DNA from: a virus
IMG/VR virus record: IMGVR_UViG_3300027792_000010
Strand: one strand, 5' to 3'
DNA: 64,000 nt
The notes under the pieces were generated by a model. It was not told the origin of the DNA and ran no database searches. It was given only the letters and a program-made list of their open reading frames with translations. The first letter of the stretch is position 1, and every line of letters begins with the position of its first letter. Positions 20,574 through 56,473 of this stretch are shown piece by piece. The position numbers were made by a program, and so were the translations under genes.

Positions 20574-20705
20574 CCTATGCTCCTACAGTTAAATGATTTT
20601 CTTAGATAATGAGTTTGATATACAGGTTGTACACCACTTGATAAAAAACGGATAATAGGTTTTTCCCAGGGGTCATCTGCTAACCACAGATTACTTCTCG
20701 GAGTT

Positions 20706-20918
20706 TCAAAAAAGTCTTTTATCATTACTTTGTTCATGTAATTTTTTATCCTCTAAAGATTTTAAATACTCCAGATATAGAAAGGATTTCCCAATGATCG
20801 GTGATCCATAAATAGCGTTAAAAGGTGGTACATACCAAGGATCATCTGAACGCCAGGAACGAGCACTCTCTCGATCCATTATAACTAATTGCCTACCTTC
20901 AGTATCTACATAGACCAT
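20706..20918 (-). CDS. small protein with WxSDDPW motif
   Basis: SWRSDDPWY; AGGAG RBS. Confidence 0.65.
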   Translation of the reverse strand: MVYVDTEGRQLVIMDRESARSWRSDDPWYVPPFNAIYGSPIIGKSFLYLEYLKSLEDKKLHEQSNDKRLF

Positions 20919-21001
20919 TCGTAATCTCCTATATGATGGATATTTTCGTAGTGTTCCATTAATTCTTCTATTGTTTTTTTATATCATAGGAATCTATTAT
21001 C

Positions 21002-21061
21002 CTATTCAAAATCTTTCCTATCCCCCCAAGGATCATCGCTGTCCCAGGTTTCTTGAAGCAT
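21002..21061 (-). CDS. 19-aa micro-ORF MLQETWDSDDPWGDRKDFE
   Basis: GGAGG upstream; carries the repeated motif; overlaps the end of 21033..21329. Confidence 0.5.
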   Translation of the reverse strand: MLQETWDSDDPWGDRKDFE

Positions 21062-21329
21062 CTCTCCAGCCTCCTAAAGCCTCTACTAACTTTTTGGCTT
21101 CTTGATTTGATACTGACATCTCAAAAGTACTTGTATGCCCCCCATGAAAGTATCTAAAATCTACCAAGAACCAAGGATCGTCAGAGTACCACGGGGTCGA
21201 TAAATTGACAGTCATCGGAAAGGTGCTGAACCCATGATACTTCGAAAAATGAGGGACCTGTGCCACACCTGTGCCACAATCTACTCTTATAATCAACCAG
21301 GGGTCATCTGCTAACCACACTTGATCCAT
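21033..21329 (-). CDS. small protein with two Wx[AS]DDPW motifs
   Basis: VWLADDPWL and PWYSDDPWF. Confidence 0.7.
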   Translation of the reverse strand: MDQVWLADDPWLIIRVDCGTGVAQVPHFSKYHGFSTFPMTVNLSTPWYSDDPWFLVDFRYFHGGHTSTFEMSVSNQEAKKLVEALGGWRDASRNLGQR

Positions 21330-21507
21330 ACTTACTCTCTAATATTAAGGGATCTTTCCTTAACTCCTCCATAGTAACATTTATTTCTTCCATCGAAGGC
21401 ATAGGAGGAACAATAATTGGCTTAAACCATCCCCAAGGATCATCAGAAAACCAAATATCGTGATTATAAACACATAAGGTTGGTTTAGATAACTTAATAG
21501 AACTCAT
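21304..21507 (-). CDS. small protein with WxSDDPW motif
   Basis: IWFSDDPWG. Confidence 0.65.
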   Translation of the reverse strand: MSSIKLSKPTLCVYNHDIWFSDDPWGWFKPIIVPPMPSMEEINVTMEELRKDPLILESKYGSSVVSR

Positions 21508-21558
21508 AAAACTAATATACTATTTGGAAAACTCAAATTAAATAAGTTTCCAAAAGTC

Positions 21559-21852
21559 TTAGTTAGGGATACGAAATTTAGGAGGGCAATCTTGCTGGGA
21601 GGCACATAACTTTTTTTCAAACTCTTCTGCTTCTTTATCCCAATCTCTACCATCATATTGATGAAGTTTATCATAGGCACATGAAGCACAATAATATTCG
21701 AACTCATCCTCTCCTGTTGGAGAAGCCCATATCGGCTCCCCAATTACTGCTTCCTTGCACATACAATCGTAAGGATCTTCTACCTTGAAATTACACCTTA
21801 GAAAGTGCTCATCTAATTCTTCTTCCCTCGTGGTCATAATCCTTTCCTCCAC
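21559..21852 (-). CDS. hypothetical protein, Cys-containing
   Basis: CMCKE and YYCASC. Confidence 0.6.
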   Translation of the reverse strand: MEERIMTTREEELDEHFLRCNFKVEDPYDCMCKEAVIGEPIWASPTGEDEFEYYCASCAYDKLHQYDGRDWDKEAEEFEKKLCASQQDCPPKFRIPN

Positions 21853-21860
21853 ATCTTTGC

Positions 21861-22073
21861 TCAGCCTCCTGAAGTCTCAAAGTACATAGCTAACATAGCT
21901 TCTTCAGTTATCCAAGGATCGTCAGAAATCCAGATAACTTTAGTACTACCTAATAGATCTATAACTTTTGCTACCGCAGGATCTACTGAGCTATACATTT
22001 TTCTATAGTACCTTCTCTTCTTTAGCTCCTCTGATATCAAAGAATCGTCAGAATCCTGTAGTTTCATTAGCAA
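21861..22073 (-). CDS. small protein with WxSDDPW motif
   Basis: IWISDDPWI. Confidence 0.65.
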   Translation of the reverse strand: MLMKLQDSDDSLISEELKKRRYYRKMYSSVDPAVAKVIDLLGSTKVIWISDDPWITEEAMLAMYFETSGG

Positions 22074-22389
22074 AAGCCTTTATATCATTATATGTTTCTT
22101 CATCTAAATATATAGTATTAGGTACTAAAGGAAAATTAGTAATACGATCAAAAGCTTCCATAATGTCGTTTATAACCCAAGGGTCATCTGAGTACCATAT
22201 CTTACCACATAGCGTATCTACTTTTATCAAATCACGATCTTTTAATAGGTCGTGATAAGAACCGTCATTAGACTTTGCTGTATCTAAGTTCCAATCAGCA
22301 TTTACGCCATATACAGAATAATCGCTAGGGCAGTTTCGCTTTGCTTCCTCATAGTTGTCCCACACTGTCCCTCCAGCATAATCTTTCAT
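22048..22389 (-). CDS. small protein with WxSDDPW motif
   Basis: IWYSDDPWV. Confidence 0.7.
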   Translation of the reverse strand: MKDYAGGTVWDNYEEAKRNCPSDYSVYGVNADWNLDTAKSNDGSYHDLLKDRDLIKVDTLCGKIWYSDDPWVINDIMEAFDRITNFPLVPNTIYLDEETYNDIKAFANETTGF

Positions 22390-22516
22390 GCGTCATGCGC
22401 CCCTTTTTCTTTGGTGTGCCTTGCTCTTTAAAGTAGGTTTCATAGTTTGTAGTGTGACCGATAGTGTAAATCATAGCAATAATATACTAATTAGGAAGGA
22501 AGTTTTAAATATAAAA

Positions 22517-22605
22517 CGGAAGGTACAGGATTTGAACCTGTGAAGGTATTTAAACTCCCTGACGGTTTAGCAAACCGTTGCAATAGGCCGCTCTGCCAAC
22601 CTTCC
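22517..22605 (-). tRNA. tRNA-Ser(GCU)
   Basis: Class II, G73, loop TTGCTAA. Confidence 0.95.
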
Positions 22606-22645
22606 ATTATTTTTTCTTTATGTTTCTTTTGTCCATAATCGAAAA

Positions 22646-22722
22646 TGGTGGGAGTATCACGAATTGAACGTGAGACCTTTCGGTTATCAGCCGAACGCTC
22701 TAACCATCTGAGCTATACTCCC
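22646..22722 (-). tRNA. tRNA-Ile(GAU)
   Basis: Loop CTGATAA, CCA encoded. Confidence 0.95.
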
Positions 22723-22737
22723 TATAAGCTATTAGGT

Positions 22738-22813
22738 TGGTAGCGGAATGTTGGAGTTGAACCAACTTAACCAAGTTTATGAGACTCGGTGAGATGCCGA
22801 CCTCCCACCCGCG
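22738..22813 (-). tRNA. tRNA-Met(CAU), initiator-like
   Basis: C1 mismatch, CGCGGG start, loop CTCATAA; acceptor stem imperfect. Confidence 0.8.
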
Positions 22814-22825
22814 ATGTATTTAAAA

Positions 22826-22896
22826 TAGTGAGAATCAGAATCGAACTGATCTAAACAGGATATGAGCCTGTTGAGGGGCCACTCCTCAATCTCACT
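22826..22896 (-). tRNA. tRNA-Met/Ile2(CAU), identity uncertain
   Basis: AGTGAGA/TCTCACT acceptor, loop CTCATAT. Confidence 0.8.
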
Positions 22897-22905
22897 GTAT
22901 GTTTA

Positions 22906-22981
22906 TGGCGGGGACGACGGGTTACGATCCCGCTCTCTTTGGCTTGACAAGCCAATGCTTTCCCGATTAAGCTACGTCCCC
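22906..22981 (-). tRNA. tRNA-Asp(GUC)
   Basis: G73, loop TTGTCAA, CCA encoded. Confidence 0.93.
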
Positions 22982-25088: not shown

Positions 25089-25870
25089 ACTGTTTTTACT
25101 TTCACTTTATAGGTTTTGTAGAAATCTCTGGTGATATTATGAAACTCTTCCGGTAGTAATTCTACAGTTTTTTGAGCAATATCTTTAGGGATTTCTTTAT
25201 AGAAAGCCTGAGCTATACCTCCGGCAATACATGCCATAGTATCCGCATCGCCATTAAGTCTTATAGCTTTTTTGATCGCGTCTATAAAGGAATCGGACTC
25301 AAGAAAACAAATGATAGATTCAGGTACTGACCCCTGACACGTCGCATCGAATTTGTAGGTCGGTGCGATATCTACCAGAGTACGATTAAGGTCATATCCA
25401 AAACTTTTTGATATGACTCTCTTAATCTCTTCTTTGGATTTCCCAATGCGTGCCATATAAACTGCTAAAGCTGTAGCTTGAGCACCTTTGATACCTTCTG
25501 GATGACTATGAGTACACTCTGCGCTTTTTTTAGCCTCTTCTAAGACCTTCCTAGGGTTATCAAAAGCATACCCTATAGGACTTACCCTCATGGCAGAACC
25601 ATTGCCAAAACTATTAAAAGGGGCATTAGAAGAAGAATCTAACCAATCTTGAAACATCCCGCCATATCCCCGACCTGGGTATCTATTACCGAAGTCTTTG
25701 TAACACTCACCATAGCTCTTCCCCGTTAGGATGGCTGAGCAGGTAGCGAAAGACATTACAGAGTCATCCGTGTAATCAGTCCCATCTGCAAACAATTCAA
25801 AATCATATACTTCTGTTTTCTTCCATTCATATGCACTCCCGATCACGTCACCTATGCAGGCACCCAGCAT
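25085..25870 (-). CDS. ADP-ribosylglycohydrolase (DraG/ARH family)
   Basis: GACIGDVIG, YTDDS, GNGSAMRVSP, NGDADT; start moved to MLGAC. Confidence 0.92.
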   Translation of the reverse strand: MLGACIGDVIGSAYEWKKTEVYDFELFADGTDYTDDSVMSFATCSAILTGKSYGECYKDFGNRYPGRGYGGMFQDWLDSSSNAPFNSFGNGSAMRVSPIGYAFDNPRKVLEEAKKSAECTHSHPEGIKGAQATALAVYMARIGKSKEEIKRVISKSFGYDLNRTLVDIAPTYKFDATCQGSVPESIICFLESDSFIDAIKKAIRLNGDADTMACIAGGIAQAFYKEIPKDIAQKTVELLPEEFHNITRDFYKTYKVKVKTV

Positions 25871-26802
25871 GATATACCGCCTTTCACTCTTTCTTTTTCG
25901 TATCCCAACCATTCTTTCCACGATATCCAACCTTTATTTAGATATGTACGGCTAGGAAAAGAAGGTATAGTGATTGGTCTACTACCACTTTTACAAAAAC
26001 ATTCCCATTCGGTTTTACTTTGTATATTAAATTTTTTAATATATTCTTTAGCTTCTGAATAGGGCATAAAACCTGTTTTTAAGACTATTATACCTTTTAT
26101 TTTATAAAATTTATTATATTTTCTTAACAATTTTAAGCTACTATCTCTATACATGAAATCTCTTAATAGTATTGAATTATTGTTAGAAAACCTTGTGCTA
26201 TAATAAATGCTGTCTTTAGGTCTTGTATAGTCAAATAACTTTTCACCCTTTTTTCTAACTTTTATGTAAATAATACCGTGTATACCTTTTATGCTACTTT
26301 CTATTGCTTCTAATAATTTATATGCTAACTCTTTGCTCCCTGAAGTGAAATCTGTTTCAAGATTATTATTATCTTTTAGAATGCTCACGCTCCCATCTCC
26401 GTCAAAGTACCCTCTAATAAAGTCTGGTAAATATTCCTGAGGGACTGTTGGAAATCCAATATCTAAACTTTTTCTTTCTTTTCCTCCAAGATTTTTTATA
26501 TCTTCAATTATTTCTTTTGAGTAAATACATATAAAATAATTATTTTTACAAGTTTTCTTTATAGGATGATTAGATTCCATAACTTTTAAAATATTTTCTA
26601 ATATATATTTGTCATTTTTATGCTGGCTTATTCCAAAGCATTCTTTATCTATAAATCCATCGGCCCACCAAAATCCTAAAACATAGGCCATATCTTTAGT
26701 CCAAATTTTAAAAAAATCTTGATTAACGTTATATCTTCTTGCCCCCTGATTCCACTTATTTTTCCAACGTTCCAATTTTTCTGATTGTGCTTCTTTGCTC
26801 AT
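25852..26802 (-). CDS. LAGLIDADG homing-endonuclease-like protein with extra C-terminal domain
   Basis: YVLGFWWADG and FIRGYFDGDG motifs. Confidence 0.85.
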   Translation of the reverse strand: MSKEAQSEKLERWKNKWNQGARRYNVNQDFFKIWTKDMAYVLGFWWADGFIDKECFGISQHKNDKYILENILKVMESNHPIKKTCKNNYFICIYSKEIIEDIKNLGGKERKSLDIGFPTVPQEYLPDFIRGYFDGDGSVSILKDNNNLETDFTSGSKELAYKLLEAIESSIKGIHGIIYIKVRKKGEKLFDYTRPKDSIYYSTRFSNNNSILLRDFMYRDSSLKLLRKYNKFYKIKGIIVLKTGFMPYSEAKEYIKKFNIQSKTEWECFCKSGSRPITIPSFPSRTYLNKGWISWKEWLGYEKERVKGGISCWVPA

Positions 26803-26989: not shown

Positions 26990-27691
26990 TTAAAGTTTAA
27001 CTATATTTTCATATAACATGTGGTATTTTCCAAAATCTATATTATCGTGCCAATGCCCACACCACAGGCTATTGAATGTAGTGTTTTGACAGACATGTTC
27101 TAAATATTTCTCGGTAGGATCAACCCTACCAATTTCACGACATAATCCTATAGACTTCAGGTATGTTTCGGCTATACTTGATGGAGCGGTATGAGCCAAA
27201 ATATAATCTACAGAATATTGGTGCTGCTCCAGATTCTGTAGCCCTAAATCCATCTCAGACCAACTTGGTATTTCTTCAGGCCACCATGACTTTCCTTCTG
27301 TCCTTGTAGCTTTATCTATACTTTGCGCGCCACCCATAACAAAGAATTTTTTACCCTCTATGGTATAGATGTGCCCTCTTTTAAGGTGAAAGATACTATC
27401 TGAGACCTTACCTACTTTACTCCCAAACATATCTATTTGTTCGAGGGCATATAGTCTGGGATGGTTCTCATGGTTACCACAAACAAATAATGTTGTAAAA
27501 GGTTTATTAGATAGCCACCAAGTCCAATAACTCTCTGTAGGGCTAGGGGTATTATCCCACACCAGCCCAAAGTCACCGAGAATGATTAGATAATCATTCT
27601 TGGTGAGCTTTACTCCTTCAGGCCACCTCTTTGCTGATAGCTTATGTATGTCGGTGTCACCGTGAGTGTCACCAGTTAAAAACGTCGCCAT
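26990..27691 (-). CDS. calcineurin-like metallophosphoesterase
   Basis: GDTHG, LGDFG, GNHEN, GHWH. Confidence 0.92.
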   Translation of the reverse strand: MATFLTGDTHGDTDIHKLSAKRWPEGVKLTKNDYLIILGDFGLVWDNTPSPTESYWTWWLSNKPFTTLFVCGNHENHPRLYALEQIDMFGSKVGKVSDSIFHLKRGHIYTIEGKKFFVMGGAQSIDKATRTEGKSWWPEEIPSWSEMDLGLQNLEQHQYSVDYILAHTAPSSIAETYLKSIGLCREIGRVDPTEKYLEHVCQNTTFNSLWCGHWHDNIDFGKYHMLYENIVKL

Positions 27692-27794
27692 TTTTATATA
27701 CCGCCTTAAGTATCATAGGATAAGGAGAACTTATTTTAATCACGTCACGCCAGGGGTCGTCTGCTTCCCTCACATCATCAGATAATATACTTTT

Positions 27795-27992
27795 TTACAA
27801 ATTAGTTCTACAAAGATTATAAGAGCGCTGGATAAAGTCAAAACGTCTTTCCTTAACCTGAGTCAAAGGGATCATTGGATTTTTACAGATTTCAAACAAA
27901 GGAGGTTTAAATCTATACAGCCTATTACCAAATAAATCATATATCCCATCAAACCAAGGGTCATCTACTTCCCAGACTTTATTATCTTTCAT
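27795..27992 (-). CDS. small protein with WxVDDPW motif
   Basis: VWEVDDPWF. Confidence 0.65.
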   Translation of the reverse strand: MKDNKVWEVDDPWFDGIYDLFGNRLYRFKPPLFEICKNPMIPLTQVKERRFDFIQRSYNLCRTNL

Positions 27993-28150
27993 TTATACTT
28001 TAACTCTAATGAGAATATACTACTATGTTCTATACGCATAGGTACACACTACATCACCTATAATAAATAAAGGAACTTTATCTCGTATAAAACCATGATC
28101 ACTACACCAGGGGTCATCTGCTAACCATACTTTATTCGCTAATAGTTCAT

Positions 28151-28357
28151 CTATTGTTTTGATATATGACTCCTAGTAGTATTATCTTTATTATACATAG
28201 GTATCATTCCTTCAGGCAACTGTTGCACTAAAAAACATTTTCTGGCTATGGAACTATAGTCCATACGATTCATGAGAGGGGCTACCATTGCTTGTGCCAA
28301 CTTTGAAAAGTCTGGCATAGCCCAGGGATCATCAGCAAACCACAAATTTGTTTTCAT
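28151..28357 (-). CDS. small protein with WxADDPW motif
   Basis: LWFADDPWA; GAGG RBS. Confidence 0.65.
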   Translation of the reverse strand: MKTNLWFADDPWAMPDFSKLAQAMVAPLMNRMDYSSIARKCFLVQQLPEGMIPMYNKDNTTRSHISKQ

Positions 28358-31686: not shown

Positions 31687-31800
31687 TTATAACCTTATTG
31701 TTTTTATAATAGCTAAGGGATTAACTATACCAATACCTATGTTATCTCTAATAACAAATCCAATCGGTCTACCCCAAGGATCATCAGCTTGCCATATCAT
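31687..31800 (-). CDS. 37-aa protein MIWQADDPWGRPIGF...
   Basis: Motif-bearing; ATGA-coupled to the upstream 43-aa ORF (31797..31928). Confidence 0.55.
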   Translation of the reverse strand: MIWQADDPWGRPIGFVIRDNIGIGIVNPLAIIKTIRL

Positions 31801-31930: not shown

Positions 31931-33292
31931 CCGTTCTGAAAAACTTATAAAATCTTTGCAAGACTCATGTTTTCTTCCTGCTTCATAGAAACAGCTTCTT
32001 GACCTATACAAGCATCTTGAAGTCTTATACTTTCTCCACAGGCTTTAATTCCCGACGAACTATCGGTATTTTTAAGTTTAATTAATACATACTTTTCAAG
32101 ATTAATAGATGCATTTAAGTCTCTATCTATGACATTTCCACAATCACATATATAAATCCTATCTTCTAAAGTAAGGTCTTCTTTCAAACAACCACAAACA
32201 GAACACGTCTTACTTGAAGGAAAGAACCTATCTACTTTAATTATGGAACCTCCATACCAAGAGGTCTTATAGGTTAGTTGCCTTTTAATTTCATTAAAAG
32301 AAGCATCTCCTATAGCACCTGCAAGTTTATGATTTTTCATCATACCAGAGACGTTTAAATCTTCTAAAACGATGTATCTTGGTTTGGTTTTCGCCAAAAT
32401 ACTTGTCATCTTATGAAGAGTATCTTTTCTTTGACTACTAATTCTTTTATATATCTTTTGTACTTTTAATTTACTCTTTAATCTATTATTACTTGATCTT
32501 TTAGTTTCTTTATCAAACTTTTTACGAGCTAAATCCTTTTGAGCATGAGCTAACTTTTTCTTTGATTTTTTAAGATACTTAGGATTTTCAAATATTTGAC
32601 AATTAGAACATGTAGCTAATGTTTTAATGCCTACATCAACACCTAAAACAGATTCTATTTGGTTTACTGGTTCTGGTATATCTTGTTCTACTTGAACAGA
32701 TATATACCATCTATCAGCTTCTTTGGAGACTGTCATAGAGTTTATTTTAACATCTTTAGTTGTTATATAACCTTTTTCTTTAAGTTTTACATAACCGACT
32801 TTAGGAATATTGATTGTTGAATTAGTTATATAGAACCCAAAGGAAATCCTAAAAGAATCTTTGTCTTTATGTTTTGACTTGAACTTAGGGAAACCTACTT
32901 TTTTACCTTGTTTCAAACCTCTAAAAAAGTTTTTGAAAGCTGTATCTAAATCCCTTAATGCTTCTTGAGGAGCCATTTTGGATATATCATACATCCAATG
33001 ATAATCAGTTTTCTTCTTACTACATAAAATTTTATGTTGATCTATAGCAGTTAAGGTTTTCTTTTCTGACTTATAAAGTTCTATACGTTCATTTAATCCC
33101 CAATTATAAGCAAAACGAGCACATCCAACACTCTTTTCTAAAAGAGTACGTTGTTTATTATTAGGATTAAGTTCTACTTTATATGCTCTATTTATCTTCA
33201 TTTTCTTTATTCTTCTTAGTCATATGACTTCTTCTACCATAAATTTTAGCTGAATAACAAGACATAATAGTTAAGATATCTGTTAGATTCCC
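31931..33292 (-). mobile_element. IS607-family element carrying only tnpB (no tnpA)
   Basis: Left end GGGAATCTAACAG, right end TAAGTTTTTCAGAACGG, GG at both junctions. Confidence 0.75.
31945..33201 (-). CDS. tnpB: RNA-guided endonuclease TnpB
   Basis: RAYKVELNP HTH; RuvC D (GVDVG), E (VLEDL), D (DRDLNA) intact; zinc finger CSVC...CDC. Confidence 0.95.
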   Translation of the reverse strand: MKINRAYKVELNPNNKQRTLLEKSVGCARFAYNWGLNERIELYKSEKKTLTAIDQHKILCSKKKTDYHWMYDISKMAPQEALRDLDTAFKNFFRGLKQGKKVGFPKFKSKHKDKDSFRISFGFYITNSTINIPKVGYVKLKEKGYITTKDVKINSMTVSKEADRWYISVQVEQDIPEPVNQIESVLGVDVGIKTLATCSNCQIFENPKYLKKSKKKLAHAQKDLARKKFDKETKRSSNNRLKSKLKVQKIYKRISSQRKDTLHKMTSILAKTKPRYIVLEDLNVSGMMKNHKLAGAIGDASFNEIKRQLTYKTSWYGGSIIKVDRFFPSSKTCSVCGCLKEDLTLEDRIYICDCGNVIDRDLNASINLEKYVLIKLKNTDSSSGIKACGESIRLQDACIGQEAVSMKQEENMSLAKIL

Positions 33293-34153: not shown

Positions 34154-34330
34154 TTATAGTCGAACATTAAAAACCTCTAATTTAGAGATATCTATTCTTA
34201 AACCTAAATATTGCATACGCTGTACTAGCTTCCCCAAGCACATATCTATATCTATATCTACCCATGGGTCGTCAGCTTTCCATAGATAGGTTGAAGCAGT
34301 CTGGGTTAAAGTTAAAGTTAAATCTTCCAT
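34154..34330 (-). CDS. 58-aa WxADDPW protein, paralog of 37776..38036
   Basis: MEDLTLTLTQTASTYLWKADDPWVD. Confidence 0.65.
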   Translation of the reverse strand: MEDLTLTLTQTASTYLWKADDPWVDIDIDMCLGKLVQRMQYLGLRIDISKLEVFNVRL

Positions 34331-34376
34331 CATAAAAATAATATACTTTTTGGAAGTATGAGTTTAAAGTGTAAAA

Positions 34377-34452
34377 TGGCTGGGACACAGGGACTTGAAC
34401 CCCGAACACCCAGAGTCAGAGTCTGGTGCTCTACCAATTGAGCTATGTCCCA
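34377..34452 (-). tRNA. tRNA-Gln(CUG)
   Basis: U1-A72, G73, loop CTCTGAC, CCA encoded. Confidence 0.95.
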
Positions 34453-36162: not shown

Positions 36163-36396
36163 CTAAATATCTATAATATTCTTTTTCCATACATAACCCA
36201 CCCTCGGATTCCAAGGATCATCACTGAATATCCTTCTATCTTTATATAAGGGATCGATACATAGTGTGAAAATCCAGGCGCTGATATATAGTTTATGATT
36301 TCCAAAGATCATTCTTAATCTCAGTTTGAAAAACAAGTCCAGAGAGATATAAAAATATGATTCTCTACTTTTGTTAAAAGTTATTCCAAATACCAT
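36163..36396 (-). CDS. small protein with FSDDPW motif
   Basis: RIFSDDPWN; start moved downstream of tRNA-Pro. Confidence 0.6.
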   Translation of the reverse strand: MVFGITFNKSRESYFYISLDLFFKLRLRMIFGNHKLYISAWIFTLCIDPLYKDRRIFSDDPWNPRVGYVWKKNIIDI

Positions 36397-36422: not shown

Positions 36423-36499
36423 TGGTCGGCAATACTGGATTTGAACCAGTGATCCCTTGCTCCCAAAGCAAGTGCGTTACCAGACTACGCTAATTGCCG
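36423..36499 (-). tRNA. tRNA-Pro(UGG)
   Basis: C1-G72, A73, loop TTTGGGA, CCA encoded. Confidence 0.95.
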
Positions 36500-37775: not shown

Positions 37776-38036
37776 TCATAGGTATCCTCCAAAATGTATA
37801 GGTTTTTGTACATTCATTACACTAACTCCAGATGGATATACTAGCAGGTTTCGGAATATTTTATCTTCTTCTTCTTCCTGTATTTGTTGTACGTGCATGG
37901 ATATTATTTGATCGCTAGCTTCCATCATTTTTTGCCCATATAAAAACCAATCACGCCACGGGTCATCAGCTTCCCACAGGTATTCAGCTTCCCACAGGTA
38001 TGTTGATGTGGTCTGAGTTAAAGTTAAATTTTCCAT
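37776..38036 (-). CDS. WxADDPW protein, paralog of 34154..34330
   Basis: MENLTLTQTTSTYLWEAEYLWEADDPWRD. Confidence 0.7.
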   Translation of the reverse strand: MENLTLTQTTSTYLWEAEYLWEADDPWRDWFLYGQKMMEASDQIISMHVQQIQEEEEDKIFRNLLVYPSGVSVMNVQKPIHFGGYL

Positions 38037-38084
38037 CGTAATGATAATATACTTTTTGGAAGTATGAGTTTAAAGTAAAAAGAG

Positions 38085-38156
38085 CTGGAGTGCAGGGATT
38101 TGAACCCCGATACTTAGATCCAAAATCTAAGATCCTAACCGTTGGATGACACCCCA
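38085..38156 (-). tRNA. tRNA-Gln(UUG)
   Basis: U1-A72, G73, loop TTTTGGA. Confidence 0.95.
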
Positions 38157-38653: not shown

Positions 38654-39046
38654 TTATTTTAATTCTTGATATTTAACAATTTTCATTTCCTCTTTTGAGA
38701 CCACTAAAGATTTTTCCAGTAGAAGATTTGACTTCTGTATAACTGTTCCTGCTCCAAGCCAAGGAGCTATTAATTTATATTTCGTTCCTTTTGAGTTCTC
38801 AAAAACAGCCATACAAAAAATTGAATCTATACTAAATCTTATTTCGTCTCTATATATAAACTTCATTACACTACATGTATCATTTACTGGTATGCTGCTT
38901 TTTAATCTCCATCCGTTATTATCTAACTGAGTATTATTCTTATATACCATCATTTGAGGGGTACTATATTGTTTTTCAAAACCCTTATTATTACCACAAG
39001 ACGCTATTACAATAATAGTTGATAATATTAATGCTTTGTATTTCAT
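38654..39046 (-). CDS. putative lipoprotein
   Basis: Signal peptide ending IASC. Confidence 0.7.
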   Translation of the reverse strand: MKYKALILSTIIVIASCGNNKGFEKQYSTPQMMVYKNNTQLDNNGWRLKSSIPVNDTCSVMKFIYRDEIRFSIDSIFCMAVFENSKGTKYKLIAPWLGAGTVIQKSNLLLEKSLVVSKEEMKIVKYQELK

Positions 39047-39975
39047 ATGCCCATTTCCTTTACTTCTTTTTTACCATCTTCAGTAAATTTCTCTACATCT
39101 TTATCATATTTTTTTAGTAATTCTTCTAATTCTGAAACATGTATTTTTTCTTCATTAGCTATGTCCTGTAATACTTTTTTAACCTTACTGTCATCAGTTG
39201 AGTCTACAATTATCTCATACAGATGTATTGCATCCAACTCAGCAGCTATAGATTGTCTAATAACTCTTGTTATCTCTCTTGGATCTAGTTTATTTTCTGG
39301 AGTAAGCGTTGGGGCTATAGTCGAGAAATCCATAGCTTTCTTTTCAATACCCTTTTCCATCTTATCTAATCTATCATAGTAATCAGGTAACTCTTTTAGA
39401 TGCGCTTTTGCTATAACTTTATAAAAATTTTCTTTCGTGATTGGCATCTTTATCTCCAACTTTTTAAAGAACTTACAAAAGAGTTCATATAAATCCTTAT
39501 GCTCTTTTTCTACATTTATCCCTTCTTGAATTTGAGAAGATGCTGAAAGATACATATGTGCTACCTTAAGAGCCATACCAGACTTTTTAATTGAGTTTTT
39601 GTCGGCTGTGTCCATTTGTTGTACCACCTTTCTTGCCCAGGTAAACCCAGGGTCACCTCCCCAAATTAACCAAGCTACGTAACCCCTATCTTTCCAGGGC
39701 TCGTCTTTATGTTTAGGGTCTATGCTTTTGTTCTTTTCGTGTCTTGAAAAGAAACTGAACATTCTTTTGATAGTATCTGGGGAAATCTTATCACGGTTCT
39801 TTAAATTTACAGCTCGTTGAACACCGGAACCTATGCCTTCTTTAGCAGCTTGTTGGGTATTTAGCCCCCCTTTACCTCCAGCTTTTTGACGGTATTCTAA
39901 TCCCTTGTTTGCTGCAGAAGCAACTTCTTTAGGAGGGACAAAATCAATATGTTTGTACTTCTCAAGAATAGACAT
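39043..39975 (-). CDS. multidomain protein: phage head-associated-type N-terminal domain plus C-terminal ferritin-like domain
   Basis: FVPPKEV...WLIWGGDPG N-terminus; GINVEKEH...HLKELPDYY middle; AELDAIHLY...IANEEKIH di-iron motifs. Confidence 0.6.
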   Translation of the reverse strand: MSILEKYKHIDFVPPKEVASAANKGLEYRQKAGGKGGLNTQQAAKEGIGSGVQRAVNLKNRDKISPDTIKRMFSFFSRHEKNKSIDPKHKDEPWKDRGYVAWLIWGGDPGFTWARKVVQQMDTADKNSIKKSGMALKVAHMYLSASSQIQEGINVEKEHKDLYELFCKFFKKLEIKMPITKENFYKVIAKAHLKELPDYYDRLDKMEKGIEKKAMDFSTIAPTLTPENKLDPREITRVIRQSIAAELDAIHLYEIIVDSTDDSKVKKVLQDIANEEKIHVSELEELLKKYDKDVEKFTEDGKKEVKEMGI

Positions 39976-40482: not shown

Positions 40483-41424
40483 TTATTCAAAGTGAATACG
40501 TTTGATTGCATCTACAAACATACTTGATACATCGATTGTTTGAATGAACTCCTCTGAGTAATCTATTCCTGGTCTCCAAACTGTATTTGTAACATGTACT
40601 TTATTTATTGGGGATCTCTTCATATCCCATATAGCATCCTTAGTTAGTATTCCGTGTATAGCACAAGCATGAATTTCTATCGCTCCATTTGACTTAAGAA
40701 CTTCTGCAGCCTTTATCATGGACTTACCCGAGGCTATCTCGTCATCAATAATAATGCATATTCTACCTTTAACATTTCCAACTAGACTTGTAATTTGAGG
40801 ATTCTCCGTATCATCAACACGAATTTTACTCATGTATGCTACGGGAAGCTGACATAGCTCAGCGTACTCTGTAACCATTTTAGAGCTACCAGAGTCCAGG
40901 GCAACTAAAGTGGTCTTGTTGAAGGATACCTCTTTCTTAAGGTATTGATAGATTATCTCTTTCGGTACAAGATGATCTGTAGGAATCCTAAAAAATCCCT
41001 GAGTTTGCGGAGAATGTAAATTCATGAACATTGCACGGCTGGCACCTGCGGTTTGAAGAAGATCCGCCAGAAGACGAGCAGTGATAGATGTTCTGGACTC
41101 CCCCCGTTTGTCTGACCTGCAGTACGGATAATAAGGAAGAACGACTGTGATACGTCCGGCGCTTGCGTGCTTGAGAGTATCGATCATTATGAGCAGTTCC
41201 ATTATTCGTTCATTCTGATTAGGATAATTAGGCTGTATGATAAAGATATCATCACCGCGAACAGACTCTTCCACCTTAAATTTGATGTTGTCATTAGAAA
41301 ATATCAAAGAAGTTGTTTTCAATCTGGGAAGATAACTTTCTGTCACCAAATATTCTAACAATTTCGATTCAATCATATTATATAAGGGAAGTTGCTCACA
41401 TCCTGTCATGATGCGAAGTCTCAT
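40483..41424 (-). CDS. prs: ribose-phosphate pyrophosphokinase
   Basis: MELLIMIDTLKHASA, PYYPYCRSD, IIIDDEIASGKSM. Confidence 0.93.
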   Translation of the reverse strand: MRLRIMTGCEQLPLYNMIESKLLEYLVTESYLPRLKTTSLIFSNDNIKFKVEESVRGDDIFIIQPNYPNQNERIMELLIMIDTLKHASAGRITVVLPYYPYCRSDKRGESRTSITARLLADLLQTAGASRAMFMNLHSPQTQGFFRIPTDHLVPKEIIYQYLKKEVSFNKTTLVALDSGSSKMVTEYAELCQLPVAYMSKIRVDDTENPQITSLVGNVKGRICIIIDDEIASGKSMIKAAEVLKSNGAIEIHACAIHGILTKDAIWDMKRSPINKVHVTNTVWRPGIDYSEEFIQTIDVSSMFVDAIKRIHFE

Positions 41425-41438
41425 GCCTACCTCCTATT

Positions 41439-42410
41439 TCAATTAACTCTAAAAAGGTTGTCTCCTGATCCAGGCGAAACTTCACATCCTGAATTTTTTT
41501 CACTTGCACTATTAGACCGATTATTTGTTACATCAGTAAGCTTTTCTTCTGGTTTATTAGATTCAGTTTTCTTTTCATCATCTACATGGTTCTGTATACT
41601 GATCAGAATATCTTCTACTTCATAGACTATATTTTGAAACTTTGGAGTTCTTTTCAATTCCGCACTTCTATCACAGGGCAAATCAACGGTCATCTTTTGT
41701 ACAATCTTTCCTGGATTTGCCCTCATAAAGAATATTTCATCCCCGAGGTATACAGCCTCTGAAATGTCGTGCGTAACAAATATAATCGTTGTGCGTATCT
41801 TTGACCAAATTTCACATAACAAATCTTGCATTTTTAAGCGAGTATTCACATCTAGAGCGCCGAAAGGTTCATCCATCAGAAGTATCTCAGGTGCTGAAAC
41901 TAAGCTACGGGCAATAGCTACACGCTGAAGCTGACCACCAGACAATGTGGGGTATTTAGCATATTTACTTTCATGTCCCTCCAGACCTACTAACTTAATC
42001 ATCTCCATAGCTTTTTCATGACGTTCTTTTTTTGGTACCCCTTTGAACTTAAGCCCAAGGGCTACGTTGTCGAGCACACTAAGCCAGGGAAATGAACTAT
42101 ACTGCTGGAACACCATTCCTACTTTGATGCTCTTTTCGATAGTTTTTCCACTAATGAGCACTTCTCCCGACGTAGGTTTTTGCAATCCTGATATATATCT
42201 GAGTAGAGTAGATTTACCAGATCCTGATACGCCTAATATAACTACGAACTTGCCTTTTTCGGAGTTATCCTCTATAAGCAGGTTGAGATCTTGTATAATG
42301 CTGGCACTGCTACCATTATACCTCTGAGATATATCCTTAAGTTCTATAATATCGTGGGCATTTGTATTCGTAAAAATAACATTATCATTGTACATACTAT
42401 ACCTCTTCAT
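41439..42410 (-). CDS. ABC transporter ATP-binding protein (NitT/TauT type)
   Basis: GVSGSGKS, LSGGQLQR, LMDEPF, VTHD. Confidence 0.93.
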   Translation of the reverse strand: MKRYSMYNDNVIFTNTNAHDIIELKDISQRYNGSSASIIQDLNLLIEDNSEKGKFVVILGVSGSGKSTLLRYISGLQKPTSGEVLISGKTIEKSIKVGMVFQQYSSFPWLSVLDNVALGLKFKGVPKKERHEKAMEMIKLVGLEGHESKYAKYPTLSGGQLQRVAIARSLVSAPEILLMDEPFGALDVNTRLKMQDLLCEIWSKIRTTIIFVTHDISEAVYLGDEIFFMRANPGKIVQKMTVDLPCDRSAELKRTPKFQNIVYEVEDILISIQNHVDDEKKTESNKPEEKLTDVTNNRSNSASEKNSGCEVSPGSGDNLFRVN

Positions 42411-42648
42411 CGGTAGGGTATAAAAGTGTAAAAGTTTTAGCAGTTTTTTTAGCAGTTTTTAAAGCTATAAGAATTTTATCTACAGACTCTATTACTTGAA
42501 TTGTATCTCTATTTGTTAATATTGTCGTATACCCATGCCCCTCTGATATGTAGTCTATTTTATCTATAGGTATAATAACCCTTAATCCTTTATCTATTTT
42601 ACCTGTAATAAGTCTTGAGCAAATAAGAAAACCAGAATTTTTACCCAC
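42397..42648 (-). CDS. hypothetical protein (FlbD/LytTR-like fold possible)
   Basis: IPIDKIDYI...TTI...IQVIES pattern. Confidence 0.5.
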   Translation of the reverse strand: MGKNSGFLICSRLITGKIDKGLRVIIPIDKIDYISEGHGYTTILTNRDTIQVIESVDKILIALKTAKKTAKTFTLLYPTDEEV

Positions 42649-42659
42649 TTAGTCACCTC

Positions 42660-43469
42660 TCAAATATATTTGTAAGGGAATAGTTTTTTGTCCAACCACA
42701 TAAAGATCCTATCCTGCACAAACCCAATCAAAACTATCATGATCAGGACAGCAAACACTTTGTCGATACGACTCTGACGGGCAGCTGTATAGGCTAATGC
42801 CCCGATACCACCTGACCTATTTACTAGTTCAGCTACAATGATGTATGTCCAGGAAATCGCTACAAGCACTCTAATGTCATCTGATATTTTGGCGAATACT
42901 GAGGGAAAGAAAACACTGAAAATCATCTGCCACCTATTAGCTCCGAGAGTTTTAGCAGTTTGTTGATGAACAACTTCTACTTCATCTATCCTTTGAACAA
43001 CTACTGGAAGCATATAGACTATGATACCGAAAGCCAAGAACTGAACCTTCATATTAGTATCGATACCGAACCATGCAATAAAAACACCAACCACAGCGGT
43101 AAGCGGTATGAATCTGGAAGCACTGATATATCTACTGAAGAGACTACGGAAGAAAGGAAACAATCCGATAGGAAAACCTATCAGGACGGCTATTATTACT
43201 GCTTCTACATATCCTAAGATATTAAGTTTGATAGAAAACAGAGTATTTGTGAATATACTATCTTTAATATACAATTCTTTGAAAGAAGTTATTACCATCC
43301 ACGGCGAAGGAAGCAAGGACTCAGGTATGAGCTTGAGGGATGTTATGATACCCCATATACCCAACAGAACTACAAATCCTGCTATTTCGATAATAAGCAT
43401 TGTTTTCTTGGGGAGTGCTCCACGAATTTCAAACAGATTATCAAGATCTTTCATATAAGTATTCTCCAA
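42660..43469 (-). CDS. ABC transporter permease (NitT/TauT type)
   Basis: Multiple TM helices; AKTLGA EAA-like loop; IVAEL...GIG. Confidence 0.9.
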   Translation of the reverse strand: MENTYMKDLDNLFEIRGALPKKTMLIIEIAGFVVLLGIWGIITSLKLIPESLLPSPWMVITSFKELYIKDSIFTNTLFSIKLNILGYVEAVIIAVLIGFPIGLFPFFRSLFSRYISASRFIPLTAVVGVFIAWFGIDTNMKVQFLAFGIIVYMLPVVVQRIDEVEVVHQQTAKTLGANRWQMIFSVFFPSVFAKISDDIRVLVAISWTYIIVAELVNRSGGIGALAYTAARQSRIDKVFAVLIMIVLIGFVQDRIFMWLDKKLFPYKYI

Positions 43470-43758: not shown

Positions 43759-45324
43759 TTACTCCCCGAGCAACTCAAACGCTGTATTACGATTCTGCGC
43801 TCGTCCATCCTCAGTATCATTGGTGGCAACAGGCTTATCAGGGCCATTACCTACAACAATGAACCTATTTTTGTCGAAACCCCATCGACTAGTGAGATAC
43901 CCTACAACTGATTTGGCACGGTTCAGGGAAAGAGTTTTATTCATGGTATAGTCACCTGTGTTATCTGTATTGCCTTCCACACGGATACGACACTTTGCAA
44001 AGCTCTTGGCTATATCTGCAAATTCCTTATCAATTTTGTAACGGCACTCATCACATAGTACGTAGGCACCAGTTTCGAAGTTTACGGTAACACGCTTAGT
44101 TGCAAATGCTTCCTTACTTGCTATTGCCGCAGTGGGCTTGGTGAAAGTAGCCGACGCTTCTGCAACTTGTTCTGGCCCGGTTAAGTTAAGGATACTTTTT
44201 AGAATTATTGTGCTAGACACGGTGCGCCATGATGGAACAGTAGACTGGTCGGGCAGTGATTCCTTGAATACTAAGGAAATCTGCGGGATGGCAGTCGCTG
44301 TTTTTTCGTATAAGTCTTCGCCCTTGATGCCATTATAATCACCATTGAGGTTGAAGAACTGAACATTGTCTCCGTAGGTGCAGAGACGGGCATTCAAGAT
44401 ATTCATGACTTCCTCTGGCTGATTAAATGCTGTAGACATTAGTTTCTGAGCAGAAGCGCGTACTGCATCAGAGCTATTGATTTCGGCAGCTGCTTTGAAC
44501 CAACCTTCGGCAAATTTTCTCAAATCATCCTGTCTAGTCAGAAGGACGGAATTTTTGACATAGAAAATATCAGCAATGGTATTGGACGCATCTTTTGTGC
44601 TTCGAAGGATTTTTGAACCTGCGACACTTTTGATACAATCCTGGTCATCAGGTGACCATACAACAGCGGCATCCACTTTACCTGCCTTGAAATAGGAGGC
44701 GGCATCCAAAGCTGTAGGCGCTTTGATTACTTCGATGTCACTATACTTCAGACCGCCTGCAGAGAGTACCCACAAGAGGAGTGTCTGAGAGGGAGTACCA
44801 AAAGCAACAGCAATGCGCTTACCCTTAAGGTCTTGAACATTATTGATACCAGAGGCTACGACGATGACATCACCACCACGGGACCAGTCGATCTGCATGA
44901 AGACTTTTGGTTCTAAATTAACTATGTTCGGGAAGAATGTTGATAGCACATCAGCGGTATTGCATACCACATCGTACTGATCGGCTTTCCAACCGTCGAG
45001 AATGTTCTGGAAGTCGTCATTAATACTGAACTCTACTTCCACACCATCCTGAGTGAATCGGGATGTCGAAGAGGGTTTCAGACCTCCATTGTAGTATACG
45101 CCAGGGGCGAATCCTACCCAGGTATTCAAGCATACCCGGAGTGCTTTGGACTTGCTGCCGCCAAACAGACCTTTGGACGGGGTTTCCGAAGCTGCTTTTG
45201 GTGCAGGTTTTGGAATCCAACCTTGTTTGTTAGCGAACTGGTAGCCGAAGAAACCACCGCCTATTACAAGGGCAATAATGAGAATCTTCGCAAACGGGGT
45301 AAGTTGAGGGGCTTTGTTAGCCAT
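43759..45324 (-). CDS. ABC substrate-binding protein (NMT1/THI5-like) fused to an OmpA/Pal-like C-terminal domain
   Basis: N-terminal TM; DWSRGGD; IRVEGNTD...LSLNRAKSV...GNGPDKP...NRNT. Confidence 0.85.
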   Translation of the reverse strand: MANKAPQLTPFAKILIIALVIGGGFFGYQFANKQGWIPKPAPKAASETPSKGLFGGSKSKALRVCLNTWVGFAPGVYYNGGLKPSSTSRFTQDGVEVEFSINDDFQNILDGWKADQYDVVCNTADVLSTFFPNIVNLEPKVFMQIDWSRGGDVIVVASGINNVQDLKGKRIAVAFGTPSQTLLLWVLSAGGLKYSDIEVIKAPTALDAASYFKAGKVDAAVVWSPDDQDCIKSVAGSKILRSTKDASNTIADIFYVKNSVLLTRQDDLRKFAEGWFKAAAEINSSDAVRASAQKLMSTAFNQPEEVMNILNARLCTYGDNVQFFNLNGDYNGIKGEDLYEKTATAIPQISLVFKESLPDQSTVPSWRTVSSTIILKSILNLTGPEQVAEASATFTKPTAAIASKEAFATKRVTVNFETGAYVLCDECRYKIDKEFADIAKSFAKCRIRVEGNTDNTGDYTMNKTLSLNRAKSVVGYLTSRWGFDKNRFIVVGNGPDKPVATNDTEDGRAQNRNTAFELLGE

Positions 45325-54813: not shown

Positions 54814-54823
54814 ACTATCTCCT

Positions 54824-55438
54824 TTATAATAGTTTCTGATAAAGAACTTCATTATCTTTACAATAATTTTTTAGTTTATCTAACCATGCCTGAGTTTTGC
54901 ATTTAAACATTCTCGGCATCTCAAACTTCTTTTCTTTCTTTATTTTACATACCAACCCTTCAAAGGTGATCCCAGGCAACTCACTCTTACGGACCTGCTG
55001 CTCTATCTCACGATTAAAGTTACCCCGGAATAGCAGCTTAGCTATATCCAAATGCCCGAACAGCCTAAGGAAATCATCAGGGCCTAGTATCCCTTGTTTA
55101 TAGGGGCTTACATCTATTAAATTCATTATGTGGGGCTCGTTAACATGCTGACCTGCAAAAGAGTTCGGTCCCCAAAATTCAAAGAAAGCCACAGCACTTT
55201 CATATCTCTGCTTAGTGAAGATATCGCTGAGATCTTTTTCCCAGTTACCTTTTATCAAAGGTATAGCTTCGCCCAGATGAGGATGATCCTCACCGAGGAG
55301 TTGGTGACGAGTCCCGAACTTGTAGAATGCTTTTTTCTTGGACCACTCTACACGGATATTGGACCCATCCAACTTATCAAAACCATAAACCAAGGTACCG
55401 TGCTGTTGGTCACGACTTAGCGATGGATATTCCTTCAT
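54824..55438 (-). CDS. RNA ligase-like nucleotidyltransferase
   Basis: FDKLDGSNIR (KxDG), FFEF, FEGLV, FKCK. Confidence 0.72.
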   Translation of the reverse strand: MKEYPSLSRDQQHGTLVYGFDKLDGSNIRVEWSKKKAFYKFGTRHQLLGEDHPHLGEAIPLIKGNWEKDLSDIFTKQRYESAVAFFEFWGPNSFAGQHVNEPHIMNLIDVSPYKQGILGPDDFLRLFGHLDIAKLLFRGNFNREIEQQVRKSELPGITFEGLVCKIKKEKKFEMPRMFKCKTQAWLDKLKNYCKDNEVLYQKLL

Positions 55439-55444
55439 GTACTC

Positions 55445-55597
55445 TTAAATCCTATCTTGGGGTGAATATACTTCATAATACCTGTCCCAATCAAAGGTAC
55501 ATGGTTTTGTACTTCCTAAGGGATCATCTGCAAACCATTCATATCTTAACAGATCACATAGTCCCCTAGTATTATCATCTTCTATGCTTTCATACAT
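55445..55597 (-). CDS. 50-aa protein with WFADDPL variant motif
   Basis: MYESIEDDNTRGLCDLLRYEWFADDPLG... Confidence 0.5.
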   Translation of the reverse strand: MYESIEDDNTRGLCDLLRYEWFADDPLGSTKPCTFDWDRYYEVYSPQDRI

Positions 55598-55608
55598 ACA
55601 TAATCCGG

Positions 55609-56238
55609 TCATGCACATACTATAATCTTTTTGTCTATCTTTTGAAATACCCAGAAGTAGCTATGAAATTTTCGTGCATGTTTCTGACTACGTAACTGCC
55701 AGTCCGCTACTATTCGATTTTTTGCCAATAGTATGAAAAGGTCTTTAGCATACCAACCCTTCTCTATGGCTTTATCATGTATGAAGCAGTGACAGAAATA
55801 TTGCTTCCCACTACTTACTTTATCCTGACATTTGAATATTAATATTCCATCTTTTTTACAAACCCTATACAACTCAGATAGAGCTTTGTTGTAGAACTCG
55901 TGGAGTGCCTTCTCATTAGGGTACACCCCGAATCTTTTGTTTATCTTATTGCTATCATTATCTTTTTTCAAAGACCCCCCTGTAGTAGCCAAGAATGGAG
56001 GATCAAACATAATTACTTCTACAGATTCATCCGGTAGAGGAAGACTCTCGGCATTAGCTTGTCTGACTCCCTCAATCTGTGGGTCTATATCAAACTTGAA
56101 CTTTGGAGGATTGAGACCTTGCTTATAGAAGTTTCCTTTGCTATAAGTAGGGTCTAGCTCTATGTCCTTCCCACCGCAGTGAAGGCTAAGTAGTGCGCGT
56201 AATAATAGTTGTTCATTATTGTATGTACTTTTAACCAT
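55609..56238 (-). CDS. putative N6-adenine/N4-cytosine DNA methyltransferase
   Basis: LDPTYSKG SAM-binding-like motif and FDPPF catalytic motif. Confidence 0.75.
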   Translation of the reverse strand: MVKSTYNNEQLLLRALLSLHCGGKDIELDPTYSKGNFYKQGLNPPKFKFDIDPQIEGVRQANAESLPLPDESVEVIMFDPPFLATTGGSLKKDNDSNKINKRFGVYPNEKALHEFYNKALSELYRVCKKDGILIFKCQDKVSSGKQYFCHCFIHDKAIEKGWYAKDLFILLAKNRIVADWQLRSQKHARKFHSYFWVFQKIDKKIIVCA

Positions 56239-56239
56239 A

Positions 56240-56473
56240 TTAGTATTTTCCTGTCTTTTCCGTTATCGTATCTAAATTAATAGGGAAAGATACCTCTTCT
56301 TCTTCTGGGCCATCAGGAACCTCGCATCCTATGTAAAAGGTACCGAAGGGATCATCAGCTTCCCATATCCCTTTTGCTGCCAAGTATGCCCATTTGCGAG
56401 AATGAGGATGTAAGCATTCTCCTACACTATCTCCAGAGCTAACTTCCCACCTGCATCTACCTGTATAGCACAT
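56240..56473 (-). CDS. small Cys protein with WEADDPF variant motif
   Basis: MCYTGRC...IWEADDPFG. Confidence 0.6.
   Translation of the reverse strand: MCYTGRCRWEVSSGDSVGECLHPHSRKWAYLAAKGIWEADDPFGTFYIGCEVPDGPEEEEVSFPINLDTITEKTGKY

Follow-up and report, generated by a model that had tools for sequence, protein, structure and literature searches.

A short peptide motif, hydrophobic-W-x-(A/S)-D-D-P-W, marks about 18 microproteins within 36 kb of the IMG/VR virus record IMGVR_UViG_3300027792_000010 and is conserved in related metagenomic phages. The stretch analysed here, referred to as the window, comprises 64 kb (64,000 nt) read out of a contig of about 202 kb (202,460 bp), and its source is a huge, tRNA-rich phage. 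The motif is real, strongly non-random, selected as a peptide and recombinationally mobile, with a probable origin in the major capsid protein (MCP). Both its likely source, a loop of the MCP, and its spread by recombination are readable from the sequence, and the motif gives direct experimental access to what an entire group of ORFan microproteins does in huge phages.

Occurrence and conservation of the motif

The pattern GAYGAYCCNTGG occurs 16 times in the window against 0.02 expected from shuffled sequences, all of them on the minus strand and spread over the three frames. The first Asp codons of these DDPW copies lie at 20677, 20846, 21037, 21182, 21308, 21444, 21923 and 22188 (array 1), at 27761, 27965, 28118 and 28333 (array 2), and at 31785, 34273, 36222 and 37967. 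Together with the variants DDPL at 55528 and DDPF at 56356, every copy listed in a preliminary description of the window was found at its place on the minus strand, while a plus-strand DDPF at 20544 is a chance occurrence. The residue ahead of the first W is usually hydrophobic. The strict form W-x-[AS]-D-D-P-W given in that description is present in 13 of the 16 DDPW copies but not in the other three, where the first W is replaced by R (27761) or I (36222), or V stands at position -1 (27965). The synonymous variation that it had pointed out is borne out by the codon table: GAT and GAC are used in ratios of 12:4 and 8:8, all four CCN codons occur, and the A/S position is encoded by GCA, GCT, TCA, TCT, AGC or AGT, with Ser reached via both TCN and AGY. 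In parallel, one identical 21-mer is indeed found three times, at 20677, 21308 and 28118.

The open reading frames (ORFs) that carry the motif encode 19-113 aa, with tails of 7-56 aa behind the motif (Table 1). In most of the small ORFs the motif lies 1-25 residues from the start codon and many have a Shine-Dalgarno sequence, including the 19-aa carrier (21061-21002), whose existence was confirmed. It is internal in c22188 (about residue 65 of 113) and c21923 (about residue 49 of 68), a second internal copy within one ORF is seen in c21182, P0006 and P0011, and more than one motif per ORF is present in P0006, P0011, P0013 and c21308/21182. A weak pattern, x-K/R-P-I, follows the motif in about a third of the copies and an amphipathic helix-like stretch often comes after it; no conserved Glu or other fixed residue was found after the motif in the 38 instances compared. 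Two carriers, at 27761 and 28118, had been reported to lack an ATG, which is true of this window, but their orthologues in the related contig L077 are translatable.

The conservation of the motif was assessed by searching a profile of its 18 regions exhaustively against 1.84 billion cluster representatives, with a cut-off of E < 0.001. The search retrieved 10 proteins of 50-127 aa, five from the window itself and five from outside it. The scan of relatives that had been proposed earlier was also carried out: the contigs of the newly retrieved proteins, L074-L078 (33-35% G+C), share synteny with the window and are rich in the motif, with 4-7 copies within 1.4-2.6 kb (L077, for example, has seven in 2 kb), and the more distant relative L126 carries the variant (I/L)-x-L-D-D-P-W/Y. 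The huge or jumbo phages LR745208.1, phage G, Tunturi_5 and LR756508.1 contain only 0-2 copies of the motif DNA word; the first three have the same MCP family discussed below, and no MCP match was found in LR756508.1. Thus, the motif system is lineage-specific, yet present in more than one genome; the lineage is a rare one of tRNA-rich huge phages, linked to phage G through its capsid protein. Close relatives of the window were absent from both GenBank phages and IMG/VR. In IMG/VR, the exact 21-mer had no match, the Ala variant of the motif matched 70 contigs with one chance-level copy each, and a double-motif pattern gave four irrelevant matches. A double-motif scan of metagenomes returned at least 118 stretches; among the 80 loci listed, all but one are simple tandem DNA repeats that hold the 12-mer by chance, and only L126 is relevant. 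Neither a tblastn comparison of P0011 with phages nor a search for longer relatives of c28333 found anything.

One further protein is mentioned here for its similarity in sequence. P0010, from a bacterial-looking contig (JGI 3300047160), has 127 aa with three tandem E-W-Y-A-D-D-P-L-V-K repeats and may be unrelated to the phage motif. Its repeats are followed by K-W-F-F-I-D-N-K, which shares 7 of 8 residues with the core of the TnaC leader (Pfam Tna_leader, E 0.1).

Comparison of the window with its relatives, in which synonymous sites are saturated overall (proportion of synonymous differences, pS, 0.5-0.8), provided the substitution test suggested in the preliminary description. In 11 orthologous motif pairs no amino-acid change is seen at the D-D-P codons, while 17 of the 44 A/S-D-D-P codons differ synonymously and all six replacements fall at the A/S/V position. 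This invariance supports selection on the peptide rather than on the DNA word. The proportion of nonsynonymous differences (pN) is 0.28-0.38 in the carriers versus 0.09-0.18 in ordinary neighbouring genes, and in the carrier tails alone pN is 0.23-0.36 versus a pS of 0.44-0.82. Since pN lies below pS in both carriers and tails, these substitution patterns indicate that the carriers are translated and constrained as proteins, if less tightly than the enzymes. The carriers are therefore under purifying selection as proteins rather than untranslated and conserved as DNA only, and they form an old family, conserved in diverged relatives, rather than one recent duplication family.

Capsid-protein fragments and recombination at the motif

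The first indication of a capsid link came from the tail of c28333, which matches the major head protein family in PHROGs (PHROG 2522, E 7e-6) and, in tblastn, the MCPs of phage G, Tunturi_5 and LR745208.1. A hidden Markov model (HMM) of these three MCPs, run against the full set of 3,528 stop-to-stop peptides from the window and its relatives, matched several carriers and their orthologues at distinct places (Table 1). The matched family is the HK97-fold MCP of the phage G type (Gp27, PDB 6WKK; PHROG 2522; Pfam PF25209). The carriers hold MCP pieces of 25-46 residues, in separate ORFs and out of order, and no full-length fold of about 280-320 aa. In c31785 the motif aligns with the native MCP loop ahead of the last strands (about residues 256-261 of the phage G-type MCP), whose sequence is L-S-A-D-D-P-K in LR745208.1 and, in phage G, I-P-A-D-K-P-E. 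The motif probably derives from this A-D-D-P loop of the MCP itself, near the C-terminus. A search for MCP homologues returned only near-identical MCPs of other huge phages, and the MCP of the window phage itself was not distinguishable among them. In L074 and L078, the orthologue of the short c21923 tail is the MCP 9-46 fragment. Among the remaining tails, some resemble a zinc ribbon or a Walker A motif and others have no recognisable family; compared with Pfam and PHROGs, the carriers gave nothing except the MCP matches and no toxin or immunity family. Atlas contained no relatives of the carriers and provided only low-confidence models (pLDDT 0.41-0.45, with 0.45 for c21444). Capsid fragments that have been domesticated and are kept by purifying selection would not be expected in an early accessory region and may bear on capsid-sensing bacterial immunity.

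A related arrangement is seen in Tunturiibacter phage Tunturi_5, whose gp172 (L202 931-1224; PP885688.1 122430-122723) is a 97-aa ORF adjoining the DnaB helicase gene. Its C-terminus is a close copy of residues ~92-120 of the Tunturi_5 MCP, the same region as in c27965, and is preceded by a twin-arginine-like, hydrophobic N-terminus. MCP-fragment microproteins may thus recur in jumbo phages.

The flanks of the motif had been described as not homologous. This is only partly correct: the tails lack a common ancestry, whereas several N-termini are paralogous and at least four tails come from one MCP. In particular, paralogy upstream of the motif links 34273 with 37967, 55528 with 56356 (whose N-terminus reads MCxTGxC), and the MKxN..VW starts of 28333, 28118 and 27965, the N-K-V-W lead-in of c28118 being paralogous to that of c27965; the tails of c21308 and c20846 are duplicates. 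Because the tails map to different MCP regions, they are not homologous to each other and not diverged paralogues, which implies that the motif has been placed repeatedly ahead of unrelated sequence.

Individual junctions are in line with this. The N-domain of c22188 is a complete 93-aa gene in LR756508.1, ending exactly where the window ORF enters motif and tail. Between the 34273 and 37967 loci, identity is about 90% over the tRNA 3' end, the promoter and the N-terminus up to the last TGG of the motif, beyond which the two are unalignable. In L074, ORF P0011 joins c21444-type and c20846-type modules between which the window has three extra modules, and the boundaries of the module differences between the two genomes lie at motifs. 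Similarly, the 95-aa ORF P0006 of L077 spans what a TAA splits in the window into c27965 and the ATG-less c27761. In array 1, six of the eight copies use Ser codons and the other two Ala, while GCA stands in every one of the four L074 orthologues available; this clustered Ser haplotype points to gene conversion among neighbouring copies. Two upstream ORFs stop at the TGA inside GA-TGA-Y of the next motif and a third at TC-TGA-C of a decayed copy, stops that help to keep the modules separate. Collectively, as read from the aligned loci, the motif is shown to move by duplication, gene conversion and illegitimate recombination, with junctions at its 3' edge. The two ideas of the preliminary description, a linear motif and a recombination module, each capture part of this picture, as the peptide is under selection and the motif is also a site of recombination.

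A LAGLIDADG gene lies 0.9 kb from array 2. In the tRNA regions of T6, nuclease-driven segmental amplification with microhomology junctions has been described (PMC13096335), and by analogy a tie between the nearby nuclease and the growth of the arrays may be inferred.

Two other explanations of the ORF arrangement were rejected. The ORF of c20677 runs about 330 nt (~110 codons, 20240-20573) into the R2K ATP-grasp gene in another frame, but a frameshift fusion of the two is contradicted by the 275-aa ATP-grasp ORF, whose own frame gives a full-length match to PHROG 7313. So long an open second frame in the ATP-grasp gene is unusual at 37% G+C, and the overlap region is kept in L074, although the body of the ATP-grasp gene is deleted there. 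Stop-codon recoding to join modules was dismissed as well, given that coding density is normal under code 11 and that c27965 and c27761 are separated by a TAA stop.

Promoters, tRNA genes and genomic setting

The minus strand of the window has 23 GTATATTA sites, most of them intergenic, and 15 also match AGTATATTA. The intergenic sites form sigma-70-like promoters with a TTGAYC-like -35 element, a spacer of about 17 nt and TG-n-TATATT. A fuller consensus is TTGATC-N17-TGGTATATTA, accompanied by a TTTAAA...AAAAAGTATATTA variant (for example at 61621, 38617, 23805 and 11186, minus strand). In four cases the ATG of the ORF stands about 7 nt past the -10 element, which implies leaderless transcripts, with predicted 5' ends at 21507, 22474, 34333 and 38036. 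Sigma-70-like promoters stand directly after several tRNA genes, and it is for this reason that carriers follow tRNAs. The earlier claim of such an association is correct for arrays after 22516-22981, 34377-34452, 36423-36499 and 38084-38156, but the link lies in promoters and plastic DNA, not in tRNA function. An Rfam scan of the window detected tRNAs only, with no conserved structure and nothing credible near tnpB. The start codon of c31785 is 145 nt past the TnpB stop, about where an omega-RNA guide would lie, and no RNA model matched an omega-RNA on the 3' side of TnpB.

The window has a G+C content of 37%, and its ORFs of at least 150 aa are nearly all on the minus strand. It contains 27 tRNA genes, one with a CTA (amber-reading) anticodon, and its coding density gives no need for TAG recoding; in the relative L078, a TAG stands exactly at the first-W position of one motif copy (about 1337-1339). 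Besides the genes in Table 1, it encodes topoisomerase I, a CCA-adding enzyme, two RNA-ligase-family proteins, dCMP deaminase and radical-SAM enzymes. A 682-aa neighbour protein had no relatives in IMG/VR, and a homologous-protein search for it gave only two. The 310-aa protein encoded at 39043-39975 also has a K-D-E-P-W stretch, probably by chance. A NADAR-domain gene follows the DDPW array in L074 (1991-2482) and L126 (363-857), and none is present there in the window.

Table 1. Motif carriers with their matches to the major capsid protein (MCP), promoter sites and other genes; positions refer to the window.
Feature	Position	Strand	MCP residues (HMM E value)	Remarks
c20677	20240-20737	-		motif DNA 20666-20686; orthologue in L074
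c20846	20706-20918	-		70 aa; tail with decayed Walker-A-like stretch; orthologous to second half of P0011
c21037	21002-21061	-		19 aa; AGGAGG Shine-Dalgarno; not in relative L074
c21308/21182	21033-21329	-		two-module carrier, motifs 21308 and 21182; not in relative L074
c21444	21304-21507	-		leaderless, start 7 nt past -10; most conserved module, also in L074 and L126
Cys-rich ORF in array	21559-21852	-		degenerate V-E-D-P-Y, then zinc-ribbon-like CxC...CxxC; conserved in L074 and L078
c21923	21861-22067	-		decayed motif D-S-D-D-S-L (about 22027-22053), then intact motif at 21923
c21923-type module in L074			9-46 (5e-6)	
c21923-type module in L078			9-35 (3e-5)	
c22188	22048-22389	-	about 165-198 (0.9, not significant)	complete conserved N-domain, motif and 42-aa tail
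c27761	27669-27794	-		no ATG; W to R; orthologue is second motif of 95-aa ORF P0006 in L077
c27965	27795-27992	-	87-124 (8e-12)	motif followed by MCP piece
c27965 orthologue in L077			89-121 (2e-10)	
c28118	28023-28172	-		no ATG in window; L077 orthologue starts with own ATG
c28333	28151-28357	-	24-69 (6e-13)	motif followed by MCP piece
c31785	31687-31800	-	250-284 (9e-7)	37 aa; MCP C-terminal fragment; just downstream of TnpB gene
c31785 orthologue in L077			249-285 (9e-4)	
c34273	34154-34333	-		leaderless after promoter 34339-34347, directly after tRNA-Gln(CTG)
c36222	36163-36312	-		I for first W; downstream of tRNA-Pro
c37967	37776-38036	-		paralogue of c34273 up to motif; 18-nt half-motif duplication; after tRNA-Gln(TTG)
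DDPL carrier	55445-55618	-		Cys-rich N-terminus; ends 7 nt ahead of RNA-ligase-like gene
DDPF carrier	56240-56473	-		ends 2 nt ahead of methyltransferase-like gene
Promoter sites ahead of carriers	22480-22488, 21513-21521, 27783-27791, 34339-34347, 38045-38053	-		GTATATTA matches
R2K ATP-grasp gene	19746-20573	-		275-aa ORF, end-to-end match to PHROG 7313
LAGLIDADG homing endonuclease	25852-26802	-		free-standing; between ADP-ribosylglycohydrolase gene and phosphoesterase gene downstream of array 2
TnpB / IS605 OrfB-type gene	31945-33201	-		
tRNA with CTA anticodon	34537-34609	-		amber suppressor; ARAGORN label Pyl; adjoins tRNA-Gln(CTG)
DUF5661 and encapsulated-ferritin-like / rubrerythrin domain protein	39043-39975	-		310 aa
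Peptide deformylase, YqeY, PRPP synthetase, ABC-transporter ATPase and permease, NMT1/OmpA-domain protein	544-1083, 4251-4706, 40483-43469, 43759-45324	-		auxiliary genes

Possible functions of the motif and comparison with known systems

Our preferred explanation, held tentatively, is that the motif is a portable peptide module that serves as a short linear docking or recognition element for one common partner, where the docking itself is what we infer. The motif stands at or near the start of units of about 20-70 residues, encoded as separate tiny genes or fused two to three per ORF, and the sigma-70-like promoters ahead of the modules would lead to their expression early in infection. Duplication, gene conversion and illegitimate recombination at the 3' edge bring the motif ahead of new sequence, with pieces of a duplicated MCP gene and zinc-ribbon peptides as new tails, and the motif has also been added to the end of a complete conserved gene. 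The motif would recruit all carriers to a single shared partner, which might be a host protein or a phage assembly, and the tails would be the variable part or nearly dispensable. The motif has the traits of a linear motif, being short, conserved as a peptide, independent of position and carrier and present in multiple copies per ORF, and the structural models suggest that it lies in poorly structured proteins. Several points weigh against this explanation. Low model confidence of orphan microproteins is a weak sign of disorder, and early expression is deduced from promoter-like sequences alone. The motif could act in folding, processing or turnover instead of docking, and in some copies the x-K/R-P-I/Y pattern, often seen just after the motif, is a hint that the structural unit is slightly larger. 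Even so, no rival fits as many observations as a linear recognition element.

A single old paralogous family of microproteins, in which the motif is the structural nucleus (a turn and helix cap with Trp-Pro-Trp packing) and the rest has diverged, seems unlikely. The tandem arrays, the duplicated pairs 34273/37967 and 55528/56356, the shared tails of c21308 and c20846, and the x-K/R-P-I with a helix-like stretch after about a third of the copies would all suit such a family. The tails, however, come from distinct MCP regions (24-69, 87-124, 250-284 and 9-46) that are not homologous, c22188 is a fusion onto a complete unrelated gene, and tails of 7-56 residues, a carrier of 19 aa and low-confidence models fit poorly with a conserved fold.

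Less probable is a signal for processing or turnover, that is, a protease site that frees modules or a propeptide, or a degron that shortens the lifetime of early proteins. Modules are fused or separate depending on the relative (P0006 versus c27965 and c27761; P0011 versus c21444 and c20846), as expected for a cleavable linker. Cleavage ahead of the first W would leave Trp at the new N-terminus, where it counts as an N-end-rule residue in bacteria. In addition, many copies lie 1-10 residues from the start, like the cleaved capsid targeting sequence of T4 (PMC3012670). Nevertheless, neither the window nor the short contigs of the relatives have a protease linked to the arrays, no known prohead-protease site pattern follows the motif, and the promoters look early, not late.

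Next, and likewise improbable, the carriers might be a panel of capsid mimics, in which MCP peptides and microproteins made at the start of infection carry a tag from an MCP surface loop that docks to the usual target of that loop. If this target were a host immune sensor of capsid proteins, the panel would act as a decoy or inhibitor; alternatively, it could be the assembling capsid lattice, either the phage's own or that of a competitor. The small ORF of Tunturi_5 with the same MCP segment is a hint that such fragments recur. If true, this reading would define a new class of counter-defence or exclusion peptides.

A signal in DNA or RNA with an incidental peptide, such as a recombination or insertion site, a target of TnpB or LAGLIDADG, or translational coupling (GATGAY holds both ATG and TGA), is quite improbable. 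It would account for the three identical 21-mers with unrelated flanks, the linked codon haplotypes, the breakpoints exactly at the 3' edge of the motif and the three upstream ORFs that stop within the next motif. TnpB ending 145 nt upstream of the c31785 start, LAGLIDADG at 0.9 kb from array 2, and the precedent of segmental amplification in T6 tRNA regions (PMC13096335) point the same way. On the other hand, variation is free at third positions and at the -2 codon but absent from the D-D-P amino acids, Ser is encoded by both TCN and AGY, every copy is in frame with an ORF, the distant L126 keeps D-D-P-W/Y and changes the flanking residues, and no Rfam family or structure was found.

Finally, it is very improbable that the carriers are leader or arrest peptides whose nascent W-x-x-D-D-P-W stalls the ribosome to control following enzyme genes: eight carriers stand immediately ahead of larger enzyme genes, in some cases 2-7 nt off or overlapping (including ATP-grasp, phosphoesterase, glycosyltransferase, RNA ligase and methyltransferase genes), and the W and D spacing is reminiscent of TnaC, but the distance from motif to stop or next ribosome-binding site ranges from 7 to more than 140 codons, the tails are constrained at the protein level, and in the arrays most carriers precede another carrier. 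Precursors of ribosomally synthesized and post-translationally modified peptides (RiPPs), acted on by ATP-grasp or radical-SAM enzymes, were rejected, as the carriers persist in L074, which has lost the ATP-grasp gene; the layout is also wrong, with an N-terminal motif and variable C-terminal sequence.

Compared with the phage G-type MCP, four tails match parts of the protein, and the carriers hold pieces of 25-46 residues headed by the motif. Short linear motifs built on Trp, Asp and Pro are known elsewhere: DPW and DPF bind the AP-2 appendage, and the SSB C-terminus reads DDDIPF. Such motifs have 4-8 residues that combine aromatic, acidic and proline positions, are context-independent, are often multivalent and lie in proteins with little structure; their likeness to DDPW is one of type only, not of sequence family.

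In polymorphic toxins, VENN (CdiA) or PxxxxDPxGL (Rhs) marks the border between constant and hypervariable parts, and recombination there swaps what follows; orphan modules lie in tandem downstream and can be without start codons. The DDPW system is alike in having a short peptide at a constant/variable border and modules without start codons, but its carriers have no large upstream delivery domain, toxin-sized tail or immunity gene. Linear-motif biology in phages is, to our knowledge, almost unexplored, and we know of very few cases of short peptide signals shared by unrelated phage proteins, the capsid targeting sequence of T4 being the classic one.

In the plastic early regions of T4-type phages, small ORFs are shuffled by short repeats at gene borders, the promoter early stem-loop (PeSL) cassettes (PMC2839356, PMC4122927). 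Promoters likewise stand ahead of many DDPW modules, and relatives differ by whole modules; PeSL elements, however, are a non-coding promoter and stem-loop conserved as DNA, whereas the DDPW unit is coding, lies inside ORFs and is free at wobble positions.

The closest analogue of the DDPW motif is the capsid targeting sequence of T4-type internal proteins, the one conserved feature of otherwise diverse proteins (PMC3012670). The T4 sequence is N-terminal, whereas DDPW is sometimes internal or occurs twice per ORF; it is followed by a prohead-protease site (L/I-x-E type) and removed on maturation, and no such site pattern is conserved after the DDPW motif; and the DDPW promoters are sigma-70-like and early-looking, with no scaffold or core protein linked. 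By this analogy, both systems consist of diverse small proteins from a plastic locus that share one short peptide, and in the DDPW case the capsid link is the match of the motif to the MCP loop.

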